Virus record (IMG/VR): IMGVR_UViG_3300044580_000067
Coordinates: 1 to 30,030 of that record
From: a virus
Lineage: Duplodnaviria > Caudoviricetes
Strand: one strand, 5' to 3'
DNA: 30,030 nucleotides
Part shown: positions 1-29,514 of the stretch, piece by piece
Layout of the letters: each line of letters opens with the position of its first letter
Numbering within the stretch: the stretch's first letter is position 1
The notes under the pieces: model-generated
What the model was told of the DNA's origin: nothing
Database searches by the model: none
Seen by the model: only the letters and a program-made list of their open reading frames with translations
Program-made: the position numbers and the translations under genes

Positions 1-38
1 TAAAGCCCGTTTACAACTTCAAAGCGGGCGGAGAATAA
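1..38 (+). CDS. rtcB: 3' end of a probable RtcB-family RNA ligase (truncated by window edge)
   Basis: Frame from nt 3 reads KPVYNFKAGGE-stop (TAA 36-38). KPVYNFKA matches the C-terminal motif I recall for a major RtcB subfamily. Only 11 codons are visible. Confidence 0.55.
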   Translation, partial: KPVYNFKAGGE

Positions 39-42
39 GAGT

Positions 43-101
43 TTCTAACAACTGCTTCAACTGGACAATCCTGACGGATGCAGGTTAAGCAAATGTTCGG
101 T
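43..101 (+). repeat. attC-like recombination site 1 (59 bp)
   Basis: R'' TTCTAAC (43-49), L'' GCTTCAAC (54-61), L' GTTAAGC (84-90), R' GTTCGGT (95-101). L'' is the reverse complement of L' plus one extra C, the extrahelical-base hallmark. The site starts 4 nt after a stop codon. Confidence 0.75.
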
Positions 102-161
102 GGACGCTCTGCGGCGTAACTGCGTTACACCGACAGCGCGCCAAGTTTTTGGCACGGATTA
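95..161 (+). repeat. Cassette 5' leader repeat, copy 1
   Basis: GTTCGGTGGACGC, then a variable hairpin, then CGCGCCAAGTTTTTGGCACGGATTA (137-161). Both blocks recur exactly at 425-437 and 474-498. Confidence 0.9.
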
Positions 162-175
162 CAGGAGGGAGGAAG

Positions 176-403
176 ATGGATCGTGAAAAGGCATTGGAAA
201 TAATTGAGAAGCTTGATAACTATGCAAGAGAAATCGACTGCTATGAATACGGGTTGCCTACTTTTCAGGACGAAAGAGAGGCAATGGTCGATATCGTGAT
301 GAGCTGTTTCGAAGGTGCCAAAAACACCGAACAAGCTAATCAACCTGACTCGCACATTATTCCGGGCAGAGTGTTGCCCTGTAACCGTACTGCATTTGTT
401 TGA
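176..403 (+). CDS. Small hypothetical protein carried on an attC-bounded cassette
   Basis: Strong RBS GGAGGGAGG before ATG 176 (MDREKALEII...). The ORF runs into the second attC-like site. Confidence 0.7.
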   Translation: MDREKALEIIEKLDNYAREIDCYEYGLPTFQDEREAMVDIVMSCFEGAKNTEQANQPDSHIIPGRVLPCNRTAFV

Positions 404-431
404 CGGCTCGCAGGTTATCAGCACGTTCGGT
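326..431 (+). repeat. attC-like recombination site 2 (106 bp)
   Basis: R'' ACCGAAC (326-332) is the exact reverse complement of R' GTTCGGT (425-431). GCTAATCAACCTG pairs with CAGGTTATCAGC with an extra C and one mismatch. Internal hairpin GGGCA/TGCCC. Confidence 0.75.
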
Positions 432-498
432 GGACGCTTTTACCGTCTAACCGCTTCGCTTATTAGACGGATACGCGCCAAGTTTTTGGCACGGATTA
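425..498 (+). repeat. Cassette 5' leader repeat, copy 2
   Basis: Same 13-bp and 25-bp blocks as 95-161, flanking a different hairpin (CCGTCTAA...TTAGACGG). Confidence 0.9.
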
Positions 499-595
499 AA
501 CGGAGCTGGTTGCTATTTCGTCAAGAACGAAACAGGAAGGATTGTTGGCCCGTATCCCGACATCACAGACTGGAAAGCGGATTTGCAGTCAATGA

Positions 596-889
596 TTGAC
601 ACATAAGACTAGACGTGATAAACTACGGCTAGTCCATATATATGATGAAAGGCTGTTTACAAGGACAGACTTGGATTTGTTAATGCAGGAAACAAGAAAC
701 AACAGGATAGCGCTTATAGCTGATTACATAATGATAAAACAGAAAAGGGATAAGAATACCGGAGGGAACAATAGCAAGAAGACAGCGAGGAAGATCGGAC
801 TCGCAGATGAAATAATGAAGCAGAAATGGGGTAAATACTACGAGTATGATAGGGAAAAGAATATACCGAAAATACTATACAAAAGATAG
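596..889 (+). pseudogene. Probable C-terminal remnant of a GREB1-like/TET-associated glycosyltransferase
   Basis: YDERL..RTDLDLLMQ, KNTGGN and KWGKY resemble the C-terminal half of phage TAGT/GREB1-like proteins. Too short for the full fold and lacks a good start or RBS. Confidence 0.45.
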
Positions 890-895
890 AAAAAT

Positions 896-926
896 ACTAG
901 ACAAATAATCCACTATGTGTTACCAT
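896..926 (+). promoter_or_regulatory. sigma70-type promoter with -35 TAGACA
   Basis: ACTAGACA (896-903), 17 nt spacer, TACCAT (921-926), upstream of RBS GGAGG. Confidence 0.7.
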
Positions 927-946: not shown

Positions 947-1501
947 ATGGAGCTACTTACGAAAAGCGGTTATCCTTTATTGACGATTGCTTCTTTATAT
1001 CAAAAGGCGATTAGGCGAGGGGACGCCAAACTTGCCGGGTTTGCGGCTTGCGAGATATGGGATAGATACCCGGAATACCTATGGAAGCGCACATTGGTTA
1101 TAAGCGCCGAGGACTGCGACGGCCTGGTAACTACCGAGATTGAGTCCCTATATCGATCAGACAAGATCATAAACGCAGGGAAAAAGGCATGGGAGAAAAG
1201 GACTCGAGTTTTCCTTGGGAAAGCAGTTACGATACTGCTAAAGGTTGGAAAATGCAGGGACGCCGATCATTTTACCAACTTCTTAATGACTAACCCCGAG
1301 CTAACGGCGCAGACAGTAGAGGAAATAGAATTAGAAAACAAGGCCCCAAAAACAATACCGGCCTACGTATATGACGTTCACACTGCCGAGGGAAAGAGAG
1401 CAGGAAAAACGAAAAAGGACTTTTTCAAGGAAGAGTTTGAAGCCTTGAAGAACCGCCAGCCAGGGTTATTTGATGATATGGTGGGTGAAGTATGCCGCTG
1501 A
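947..1501 (+). CDS. Phage protein with MgsA/RarA C-terminal-like helical domain
   Basis: SLYQKAIRRGD...LWKRTLVISAED resembles the RarA C-terminal SALxKSIRGSD..RRLxxxAsED motif. No Walker A. RBS GGAGG before ATG 947. Confidence 0.65.
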   Translation: MELLTKSGYPLLTIASLYQKAIRRGDAKLAGFAACEIWDRYPEYLWKRTLVISAEDCDGLVTTEIESLYRSDKIINAGKKAWEKRTRVFLGKAVTILLKVGKCRDADHFTNFLMTNPELTAQTVEEIELENKAPKTIPAYVYDVHTAEGKRAGKTKKDFFKEEFEALKNRQPGLFDDMVGEVCR

Positions 1502-2083: not shown

Positions 2084-3389
2084 GGAGCAATTCCTAGAAA
2101 TAACCGCCCAGCTTGCCAGGGAAGAAGTTGCGCCGAAGTTTAATGAGTGGCGCAAGCCGTATGCCTATAAGATCGCCTATGGCGGGCGCGGGGCTGGAGC
2201 CAAGACCGAATCTGCAATGTCCCTTGCGGTGCAATTCGGGGAGAATCCGCAGTATTTCGGTAATAGGGTGAATATCATAATCACCCGAGAGATACAAAAC
2301 ACCATCGATCTGTCATCCTTTGAAGCGGTAAAGAAGAAAGTCCAAACCCTTGGATATTCAGGATGGCGAATAACTAATAAGTACATCGAAAACACGAAAA
2401 ATGGCTCGCGGATTTCGTTTCGAGGTCTATCTGATCTTACCGCGGACAACTTTCGATCACTACAGGACGTAGACATTCTGGTCTGCGAGGAAGCGCACGG
2501 CATTGGATATAAGGCATGGAATACTGTCCTACCGTCGATGCGAAAGGCAAAGGCCGAGGTGTGGGTGTTGTTTAACCGCGTGCTTGAGATAGACCCATGC
2601 TATGATATATTTGTGCTAAACGAAAGGCCGAATAGTTGTATACTTGCGTTAGAGCCTGGGAATATAGACAATCCGTGGTTTGATCTTTCATCGCTACCAG
2701 AAAAGCGCGCGGCTGATTATGCCCGCGACCCAGACGAAGCCGCACATATATGGGAAGGATTGCCGAGAAAGCAGGGCGCAAATGCTGTTATGAACCGTCT
2801 TGATGTACTCGCGGCTATGGAAAGGAAAATCGAAAACCCCGAAGGAGACGATGCTATAGGAGTAGACGTAGCGCGGTTTGGAAGCGACTCGACGCAGATA
2901 TATCGGCGAAAAGGGTTAAAGGTTATTGCAGGGGAAACAATGACCGGGGTTGATACCGTACAGATAGCAAATAAGGCGTGGGAGATTGGCGGGATAGATA
3001 TAAAGTACAACATCGACGGCGGTTATAACCCAGGTTTGATAGATGTTATGCGCGGACGAGGGGCAGACGTTACGGAAATACAGTTCGGCGGTCGCCCGAG
3101 CAAGCCGGACGAATATGCAAACCTAGCGACTGAAATGTGGTTTGAGTTTCCCGTCAAGGAAGCCGACATTCCGAATGATAAAGAGCTACTGGTACAGCTA
3201 ACCGATAGGCGATATGGGTATGACAGCAAGGGGCGAAAAATAATCGAGCCGAAAGATGCGTACAAGAAGCGGAACGGAGGAAAGTCGCCCGATAAAGCCG
3301 ACGCGCTTATAATGGCCTACTATAGGCCGAAGAAAATCGTAGACGATGACATACGCGCACAAATGGCCGCGCTCCGCGCAAGGAACTGA
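2070..3389 (+). CDS. terL: Terminase large subunit (PBSX-type)
   Basis: GGRGAGAKT Walker A, LVCEEAH Walker B, GVDVARFGSD and SPDKADAL nuclease motifs. Confidence 0.95.
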   Translation: MITSEEQFLEITAQLAREEVAPKFNEWRKPYAYKIAYGGRGAGAKTESAMSLAVQFGENPQYFGNRVNIIITREIQNTIDLSSFEAVKKKVQTLGYSGWRITNKYIENTKNGSRISFRGLSDLTADNFRSLQDVDILVCEEAHGIGYKAWNTVLPSMRKAKAEVWVLFNRVLEIDPCYDIFVLNERPNSCILALEPGNIDNPWFDLSSLPEKRAADYARDPDEAAHIWEGLPRKQGANAVMNRLDVLAAMERKIENPEGDDAIGVDVARFGSDSTQIYRRKGLKVIAGETMTGVDTVQIANKAWEIGGIDIKYNIDGGYNPGLIDVMRGRGADVTEIQFGGRPSKPDEYANLATEMWFEFPVKEADIPNDKELLVQLTDRRYGYDSKGRKIIEPKDAYKKRNGGKSPDKADALIMAYYRPKKIVDDDIRAQMAALRARN

Positions 3390-3419
3390 CAGAACACCGT
3401 ATACCGTGGTATAATACCG
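3386..3419 (+). promoter_or_regulatory. Promoter for portal operon; -10 embedded in a palindrome
   Basis: CTGACA (3386-3391) then TGG-TATAAT (3410-3415). The 14-mer GTGGTATAATACCG is shared with 5874-5887. Confidence 0.6.
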
Positions 3420-3435
3420 CACGAGAGGTGAAAAG

Positions 3436-23167: not shown

Positions 23168-23178
23168 CTGAAAAAATA

Positions 23179-23209
23179 ACTAGACAGATAAAAAAAAACG
23201 TGCTAGACT
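23179..23209 (+). promoter_or_regulatory. Early promoter with -35 TAGACA
   Basis: A-rich UP tract, ACTAGACA, 17 nt spacer, TG-C-TAGACT (23204-23209). Confidence 0.7.
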
Positions 23210-23292
23210 AACCTTATTAAAGACTCCATTGGAGGTTAGTTTGAAAAACACTTTACGTCGCGCCATGCCTATAGCTGGAAAACCTCTAAACT

Positions 23293-26952: not shown

Positions 26953-27765
26953 ATGCAAAGAATGAGTTCGATACCTAAACCTAATTACACGCAAATACCG
27001 AACGTTTATTTTGATGAAATTATGTGCAGTCTAAACGGGTCGGAAAATCTTGTTTTCCTTGCGATAATGCGAAAGACGTTTGGTTGGCATAAGATGAAGG
27101 ATAAAATATCGTATGCACAAATACGAAAAATGTCCGGGTTAGCATCTAACACGACTATACAAAAAGCACTAGACAGTCTAATTGAAAAGAAACTTGTGCT
27201 ACAGGAGAAGGAAAAAGCAGGCATAAGCTACGAAGTAAACGTGGAGACCTTTACAGAAAATGTAAAGGGTACAGATGATGACCTTTACAGAAAATGTAAA
27301 GCTACCTTTACAGAAAATGTAAAGGGTAAGGTTGAAACCTTTACAGAAAATGTAAACACAAAAGAAAGTAATATAAATAAAATTAAAAAAAATATAGACT
27401 TTTCAAAAATTGAAAAGTCGTATGCGGAAGAATATGAAAAACTAAAAGGACATAAACCAACACTCATCTTCGCTGCTCTTCGCTCTCGTATAAAAAAACT
27501 GGCCGCCCAGGGAATAGACGAATCGTTAATCTTGAATGTGATACGCGCCGCGACGAAGGACGAATGGATTGTGGCGAACGGATTCGAGATACTAACGATT
27601 CTGTCAGATAAAATGATAATGCGATTAGCAAATGAGACGCAATCATCGAGAACGTCCTCTCCGAAAAAAGGCGTGACTTGCCCACGTTGCGGCTCGGAAG
27701 TAATAGCAGGCATCTGTACGAAATGTCGAGCGCTTATAGATTCTGAAGGGAAGGAACTGACATGA
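26953..27765 (+). CDS. Replication initiator (lambda O-like N-terminus, C-terminal Zn ribbon)
   Basis: PNYTQIPN...IMRKTFGW.K..D.IS, internal iterons, CPRC..CTKC. Start may be 26962. Confidence 0.85.
   Translation: MQRMSSIPKPNYTQIPNVYFDEIMCSLNGSENLVFLAIMRKTFGWHKMKDKISYAQIRKMSGLASNTTIQKALDSLIEKKLVLQEKEKAGISYEVNVETFTENVKGTDDDLYRKCKATFTENVKGKVETFTENVNTKESNINKIKKNIDFSKIEKSYAEEYEKLKGHKPTLIFAALRSRIKKLAAQGIDESLILNVIRAATKDEWIVANGFEILTILSDKMIMRLANETQSSRTSSPKKGVTCPRCGSEVIAGICTKCRALIDSEGKELT
27247..27420. repeat. Replication origin: four 20-bp iterons plus AT-rich tract
   Basis: ACCTTTACAGAAAATGTAAA at 27247, 27281, 27304 and 27337. Each has the inverted repeat TTTACA-N5-TGTAAA. A/T-rich segment follows. 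Confidence 0.9.
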
Positions 27766-29442: not shown

Positions 29443-29456
29443 AAATAAAAAAATAG

Positions 29457-29487
29457 ACTAGACAGAAAAGAAAAAGCGTAATAAACT
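29457..29487 (+). promoter_or_regulatory. Promoter with -35 TAGACA
   Basis: A-tract UP element, ACTAGACA, 17 nt spacer, TAAACT (29482-29487). Confidence 0.7.
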
Positions 29488-29514
29488 ACAAGACATGAAA
29501 AGGAGAAACGGGAT

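Follow-up and report, generated by a model that had tools for sequence, protein, structure and literature searches.

The cassettes of an attC array carried by a phage contig were found to contain, directly downstream of the R′ box, a hairpin module whose geometry is retained while its sequence changes. This module is a real structural element, present throughout a family of related arrays, and is not a local duplication. There is about an even chance that it acts as an accessory arm, bound by integrase, of an extended attC site in single-stranded form, used by the IntI of a host that is likely to be a spirochaete.

The stretch of DNA analysed here, termed the window, is the whole of virus record IMGVR_UViG_3300044580_000067, with a length of 30,030 bases and an estimated completeness of 44%. 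Terminase, head, tail and replication genes are present on the window, while the cassettes occupy its left edge, which is the tail of an attC cassette array. The features of this edge are as follows.

3 to 38, plus strand: 3′ end of an RtcB-family cassette gene, the contig starting within the gene (the translation is the C terminus of an ORF of viral stretch L002 that matches Pfam RtcB)
43 to 101, plus strand: attC1 (R″ 43-49, R′ 95-101), the attC of the RtcB cassette, with an imperfect L stem
96 to 425, plus strand: complete cassette of 330 bp, from G/TT to G/TT, with its own R″ and R′ fully complementary; identical in L002
103 to 141, minus strand: module 1, a side hairpin (left arm 103-112, right arm 132-141, inner stem 112-132)
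142 to 155, plus strand: linker of 3 nt (142-144) and then the X′ tag (145-155), the reverse complement of 315-325
162 to 168, plus strand: Shine-Dalgarno (SD)-like sequence of the cassette gene, assigned from sequence
176 to 403, plus strand: ORF of 75 amino acids, of no known family, running through X into attC2
315 to 325, plus strand: X tag, which adjoins R″ and, with X′, closes a predicted three-way junction
326 to 431, plus strand: attC2 (R″ 326-332, L″ about 338-349, L′ about 410-419, R′ 425-431), with a branched terminal structure
433 to 478, minus strand: module 2, a variant with spacers of 6 and 4 (inner stem 443-470; A434 and A471 unpaired)
479 to 505, plus strand: linker, second copy of X′ (482-492) and the degenerate SD that belongs to a truncated cassette stub

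The attC2 site exhibits the canonical R″-L″-L′-R′ palindrome, with an extrahelical C and A on the left arm of the top strand, and a bottom-strand bias in folding (z of −2.46 for the bottom strand versus −1.54 for the top). The imperfect attC1 had z values of −1.33 for the bottom and −2.24 for the top strand and was missed by the attC detector. With two attC sites (43-101 and 326-431) and no intI found on the record, this region is a CALIN. Elsewhere in the window, four iteron-like repeats with internal palindromes are located at 27247-27368 within an O-like replication initiator gene and are likely to be an origin. A loosely repeated A-rich motif was observed at three distant places (598-626, 23171-23211 and 29449-29489), the first copy overlapping a promoter-like match at 596-624.

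A first-pass annotation, made from the letters of the window, had described two cassettes that share a 5′ module of fixed flanks around a sequence-variable hairpin. The elements themselves were all recovered: the common start GTTCGGTGGACGC is present at 95-107 and 425-437 (14 nt are actually shared), an identical 25-mer is located at 137-161 and 474-498, and hairpins of differing sequence occupy 112-132 and 443-470. The 25-mer had no further match along the rest of the window at up to 3 mismatches (0 in 100 shuffles). Only the first of the two cassettes is complete, the second being a stub with no attC detected after 431 and no start codon after its degenerate SD; the leader of this stub is also found ahead of intact ORFs in L001, L073 and L104. 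The description of the flanks as fixed did not survive, as the 13-mer consists of the attC R′ core plus the module start, while the 25-mer serves to tag one lineage and complements the 3′ end of its own cassette. What is conserved is a geometry, G[A]Y-N5-RC twice around a stem, rather than flank sequence. In module 1, both arms read GAY-N5-RC on the top strand, leaving A104 and A133 unpaired (T on the bottom strand). In the first hairpin, a top-strand C·A mismatch becomes a G·T pair on the bottom strand, and the z values of the two hairpins were −3.19 and −2.72 for the bottom strand but −1.62 and −1.77 for the top.

Homologous arrays were collected by exact scans for the leader (5 and 14 viral stretches), exact scans for the 3′ tag (18 viral and 120 metagenome stretches) and an attC arm pattern that is independent of the leader (102 viral stretches). 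A module could be parsed in 119 of 195 distinct sequences following a called attC, a set that includes false attC calls and array ends, compared to 0.8 on average and 3 at most in shuffles; a GA at positions 9 and 10 was present in 164 of the same 195. Among the attC-selected loci, from which 38 of 102 rows were left out for lack of a detectable L′ or of a full leader, 37 of 64 had the module, 14 had GA only and 13 had neither. A free scan yielded 221 distinct modules in 114 loci, some of which overlap. These counts do not represent independent events, the parser having been built from the same sequences, many of which are related. In top-strand terms the module has the form G[A]Y-N(4-6)-R, then 7 to 9 pairs of inner stem with a variable loop, and then [A]Y-N(4-5)-RC, and its start is fixed at base 9 after G/TT.

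The suggestion that structure is kept while sequence changes was borne out by compensatory changes. In an MI-APC analysis of 81 distinct stem sets, all 11 variable pairs had the predicted partner as the best one; the closing G:C of the module is invariant and, hence, uninformative for covariation. In 30 hand-picked diverse modules, 12 of 13 pairs vary on both sides, and 90% of cells pair as compared to 66% in shuffles and 25 to 36% in slid registers, these being controls that leave relatedness in and a model derived from the same data. The pair flanking the inner bulge covaries. The two-copy decayed duplication lacking compensatory change that had been named as the refuting outcome was not what was found, as the module is family-wide and covaries. 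Rfam searches gave no real match to the module loci.

Several observations distinguish the strands. Read on the top strand, inner stem pairs comprised 778 Watson-Crick pairs, 49 A·C and 3 G·T combinations, and outer pairs included 18 A·C versus 8 G·T. The consensus energy was −15.0 for the bottom strand versus −10.3 for the top, where only the inner stem was retained. The bottom strand folded better in 138 of 183 modules with DNA parameters (the top strand in 42) and in 175 of 183 with RNA parameters. Loops of the cGNAg type, which are extra stable in DNA, were present in 19 of 67 cases on the bottom strand and in 6 of 67 on the top, so that the loop types lean towards DNA over RNA as the folding molecule. 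The module is thus predicted to fold on the bottom strand, a bias which by itself would fit single-stranded DNA and antisense RNA alike.

The first-pass annotation had overlooked that both 145-155 and 482-492 are exactly complementary, in reverse, to 315-325, which immediately precedes R″ in attC2. The hairpin that it had assigned to the 25-mer does exist, but it belongs to one lineage and, in the predicted fold of the whole junction, yields to pairing with 315-325; as a conserved element it was, therefore, rejected. From its sequence, the 25-mer is the tag of one lineage, pairing with the 3′ end of its own cassette. A predicted three-way junction of X stem, module and attC was obtained both for the circle junction of the window's cassette and for window positions 300-500 as they stand. 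The start of a complete cassette matched its own R″ at all 7 bases in 95 of 137 cases, while the start of the next cassette did so in 7 of 137. A distal X/X′ stem was detected in 54 of the 137 (permutation mean, 8.5; maximum, 18) and, outside the lineage used for searching, in 25 of 104 (permutation mean, 1.5; maximum, 6). In 47 of the 54 cassettes with an X stem, X′ begins exactly 3 nt past the module. The X tags have many different sequences, constituting lineage-private inverted repeats that covary across lineages. The X stem is, then, optional, most cassettes lacking it, and the module is general. An AAGA-type purine-rich motif is common directly before R″ in cassettes without an X stem.

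Two other candidates were discarded. The sigma-54 promoter consensus has a −12 GC element at a fixed distance from a TGGCAC −24 element; here the bases at the −12 position are those of the SD region and vary, and TGGCAC belongs to one X tag only. In eight runs of contigs no circle junction was seen, and a joint of 437 to 125 that might have been one has a different hairpin between and was read as a neighbouring cassette of the same lineage.

The nearly identical stretch L002 contains an attI-like site and eight cassette starts, ending in the window's cassette and the same stub. One extra cassette, of 302 bp, separates the RtcB cassette from the window's cassette in L002, and the break between the two versions falls within about 18 shared bases that include G/TT. 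Integrase excision fits the break, with homology-driven loss as a possible alternative. In 129 of 137 cassettes, the module is followed by an SD and start codon no more than 60 nt away. The cargo matched phage families in 20 of 83 clusters and included five DNA methyltransferases, a Mom-like protein and a Lar-like protein. The frame of the window's cassette, consisting of the same leader and tail, is common to 54 distinct cassettes; 51 of the 54 ORFs enter X in one fixed reading frame, and the 53 protein bodies fall into 38 clusters. Digester and wastewater contigs also exhibited the same leader joined to the same tail with other sequence between.

In order to place the heads of the arrays, 161 distinct upstream contexts were classified, comprising 69 attC, 23 relaxed attC, 41 copies of a conserved 24-nt site and 28 unclassified contexts, many of which resemble a decayed attC or a decayed 24-nt site. 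In the 24-nt site, two tail-to-tail arms are succeeded by TAA, a 6-bp spacer and the TT of the cassette. Its pattern matched 52 of 17,039 GTT contexts, 49 of which continue with GA versus a background of 7%. This site has no bottom-strand bias (19 G·T and 4 A·C), as expected by analogy of a double-stranded attI. Such attI-like sites, three-armed in all, head the arrays in L002 and L010 and, in independent contigs (loose ends), lie directly before the window's leaders. A sigma-70-like promoter with at most 2 mismatches to consensus was located upstream of 4 of 43 head sites (shuffle mean, 0.85; maximum, 2). Some phages (G007, G140 and G142) have two separate attI-like sites with arrays. The 24-nt unit is sometimes found directly after an attC or attC remnant, starting from its own G/TT as if inserted as a cassette (L101 at about 510-535, plus strand; L217 at about 878-902, plus strand; L114 at 1219-1244, minus strand). 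At the end of many arrays there is a half attC, consisting of R″-L″, which passes into either an SD with a phage gene or promoter-like sequence (L171, L173, L181, L187 and L201, at about 2000).

An integrase for these sites was sought in the phages. The IntI model TIGR02249 scored above cutoff in 0 of 70 viral records, and one record among 36, or one among the 10 that were near complete, had a tyrosine recombinase of any kind, this single example being an Arm-binding phage-type integrase. No phage-encoded recombinase common to the module phages was found, and no protein family was common to all 10 phage sequences compared. As neither IntI nor a shared recombinase was found in the phages, we infer that the integrase acting on the arrays is that of the host. 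From the SSB of one phage (not the window's own), for which all 7 organism-named homologues among 120 listed were Spirochaetota, the module phages are likely to infect spirochaete bacteria. The window's terminase, with named homologues from mixed hosts at 43 to 45% identity, was not used for this call. The SSB of phage TJE1, whose listed host is Tetrasphaera, groups with those of five further phages that bear modules, and for one of these five the named homologues are all Spirochaetota (cluster genes include L269 1846-2196 and L293 5957-6502). A search of a genome collection with the leader tag produced 8 matches, none with a module or an X-R″ end, which were read as chance, and the attC-plus-GA pattern was present in 0 of 101 genomes of the phylum of G022 and 0 of 301 of the phylum of G024, the searches centring on Phycisphaerae and Eggerthellaceae.

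The proposal of an accessory arm derives from a motif, TT-N5-G-A-Y, that recurs in the R′ arm, the inner right arm of the module, the L″ arm of attC (minus its bulged C) and the repeat of the head site; TT and GA had been used in selecting the sets of modules and head sites, but not that of L″, whose profile was built from 188 arms. The conserved extrahelical T of attC is reported to be bound by integrase (PMC2727003). Since the A of TT-N5-GAY is the complement of this T, the inner stem resembles an L-box arm without the extrahelical G, and by the same correspondence the R arm would gain from the outer stem an extrahelical T of its own, equivalent to that of the L arm. Whenever the bottom strand became single stranded, in an excised circle or a replicating array, attC and module would fold as abutting hairpins, which X/X′ would close into a three-way junction in about 40% of cassettes, and the inner stem would supply one further integrase arm. 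The extra integrase occupancy could then assist assembly of the attC × attI synapse, as DR1/DR2 do for attI1, and cassettes would thereby enter behind the attI-like site of the phage, with sequence just downstream of the module also providing the ribosome-binding site.

Some leaders bear on this proposal. Of 45 GA-positive leaders without a full module, 4 begin at the TT of the inner arm, and in two of these 4, L129 and L155, the retained R″ points to another start; such a pattern would be expected if integrase sometimes cuts at the inner TT, though the leaders could alternatively be slippage deletions. Stabilisation of the R box by the module was not supported, as shuffling of the module left the predicted R-box pairing unchanged (0.99 versus 0.99). 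The outer G:C pair beyond the bulge had a mean probability of only 0.27, and the outer extrahelical T is uncertain because RNAalifold pairs this G with T (G·T) instead.

The closest characterised relative is the CALIN of the cultured phage TJE1, which has three modules, the same attC arms and, within the first of its cassettes, X/X′ pairing. Recombination of the TJE1 attC sites with IntI1 has been shown (Qi et al. 2023, PMC9892861). The attC1 oligonucleotide used was the bare attC lacking the module, and, as it recombined like the control, the module is not required for IntI1. The available part of the article makes no mention of a hairpin or leader on TJE1 and names an upstream palindrome as a terminator, which fits the attI-like head site described here (NC_019930, L269; 49197-49219 and 1-4, with the spacer one base short at the junction of the record).

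All of the features of a canonical attC are present in attC2 (R″, L″, L′, R′, unpaired spacer, extrahelical G and T, and a variable terminal structure), together with the bottom-strand bias and R-box complementarity within the cassette itself. The difference lies in a second structured hairpin directly after R′ and in a distal X stem that can close a three-way junction. The head site resembles attI1 in its presumably double-stranded state, in the 6-bp spacing of its L and R arms and in having the core directly repeated upstream. The accessory repeats DR1/DR2 of attI1 favour attI × attC recombination (PMC8946536). These repeats lie at 32 and 51 nt, whereas the head site has a single repeat, 24 nt upstream and tail-to-tail with the L arm. 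Furthermore, no intI adjoins the head site, and a strong sigma-70-like promoter is upstream in only 4 of 43; in attI1 the accessory sites are on the platform, while here one is also proposed on each cassette. A conceptual precedent for the module is the DUF1874 motif, a multistem structure in consecutive intergenic regions, 5′ of genes and lacking an integrase, for which the status of an atypical attC has been suggested (Weinberg et al. 2017, PMC5737381). Its model, RF02953, had no match in two module-rich phage records at E values of up to 10 and none in 12 loci.

A link to class 1 integrons was provided by a long attC with the same arms in L273, which matches attC sites carried by class 1 integrons, including that of aacA1:gcuG, listed as a Spirochaetes-type attC by Ghaly et al. 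2021 (PMC8352920). Three distinct class 1 cassettes reached through L273, in integrons borne on plasmids, start with R′-N-G[A]C, a short stem-loop and GC, and a fourth, fetched afterwards as a test, also has this short form (aphA16, aacA1:gcuG, aac(6′)-F72 and one hypothetical gene; L294 about 3170-3200, L295 about 2949-2985, L296 about 3404-3430 and L298 1278-1305). None of the 11 other cassettes in those integrons has it, the one GA among them being derived from its SD. The earlier remark that classical cassettes do not usually share a 5′ module was, hence, correct for 11 of 11 cassettes in class 1 integrons whose attC is of another type, though not for the present attC family, in which 4 of 4 carry the short form. 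Spirochaetes-type class 1 cassettes have a long attC terminal structure and the outer stem only, while the phage cassettes mostly have a short attC and an added inner arm. On this small sample of sequences, the outer stem would go with the attC family and the inner arm would be a phage elaboration.

The four roles offered at the outset (cassette genesis, processing, translation control and recombinase recognition) did not fare equally: recombinase recognition on single-stranded DNA is the best supported, and structure in the top-strand mRNA is disfavoured by the mismatch bias. That the hairpin and X/X′ act in the top-strand transcript, controlling translation or stability of the cassette gene, would accord with the proximity of the SD and start codon in 129 of 137 cassettes, with Watson-Crick pairs that are possible on either strand and with loops that include 7 of 67 cUNCGg and 4 cGNRAg on the top strand. 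The top-strand excess of A·C over G·T (49 versus 3), the retention of the inner stem only in the top-strand consensus, a position tied to the crossover point rather than the start codon and the lack of any Rfam match all oppose it, and we regard this role as quite improbable. Equally improbable is an inhibitory role, in which the module binds integrase and either the extrahelical T of the R arm disables the attacking monomer or the module soaks up integrase, with the consequence that cassettes stay in the phage genome. The bulge is at a position equivalent to that of the L-arm T, whose binding is reported to disorganise the catalytic site (PMC2727003), and the module forms beside every attC of an array, whichever cassette comes next; arrays that differ by whole cassettes (window versus L002), short-form cassettes having moved into class 1 integrons and the weak prediction of the outer bulge speak against inhibition.

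A somewhat better, though still unlikely, alternative is that leader, X tags and attC are a reusable frame, of single-stranded DNA or antisense RNA, that takes up new ORF bodies by copying or recombination, the hairpin being read by the ORF-capture process and not at each shuffling event. Its main support is the 54 cassettes with one frame, with 51 in fixed phase into X and 38 body clusters, to which can be added the digester and wastewater contigs with the same leader and tail around other sequence, the lineage-private inverted repeats of the X tags and the preference for the bottom strand in 175 of 183 modules with RNA parameters. Against it, the 10 phage sequences compared have no protein family in common, short proteins may be unrecognised homologues, selection for a C-terminal tail and stop could fix the reading frame, and the match of the inner arm to the L-box arm is left unexplained. 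Neutral descent, as a decayed local duplication or the remains of old recombination sites, is very improbable; the window's second copy is a stub and several leaders have partial deletions, but 221 distinct modules in 114 loci of phages without a shared gene set, and above all the pair-specific covariation, have already largely refuted it. The accessory-arm reading can also be joined to that of a reusable frame: spirochaete integrons and phages would use three integrase arms on both partners (a folded arm per cassette and a tail-to-tail repeat in a portable 24-bp attI), and the cassette ends would be a frame capturing unrelated phage ORFs in one reading frame. This combination is unlikely.

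No description of a hairpin after R′, or of an accessory arm on attC, was found in the literature searched, which was largely that outside subscription. We infer that the module is a new structural addition to integron cassette architecture, for which the role of accessory integrase arm is testable. An attC site is usually treated as a self-contained hairpin ending at R′, whereas the present arrays have a conserved structure just beyond that boundary, one that covaries, moves along with each cassette and reiterates the arm of the L box. Should the module bind integrase, the cassettes would bring an accessory site of their own, and models of attC in this lineage would be incomplete; the cultured phage TJE1, with its proven attC sites, makes a direct test possible. 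The short form marks cassettes of the present attC family that have reached class 1 integrons, and attI-like heads without an integrase in unrelated phages suggest the borrowing of a host enzyme. A common frame around dozens of unrelated ORFs bears on the origin of cassettes, a long-open question. If the joint reading were true, these arrays would present a visible route of cassette making and a gene-shuffling platform, driven by host integrase, that is common to unrelated phages.
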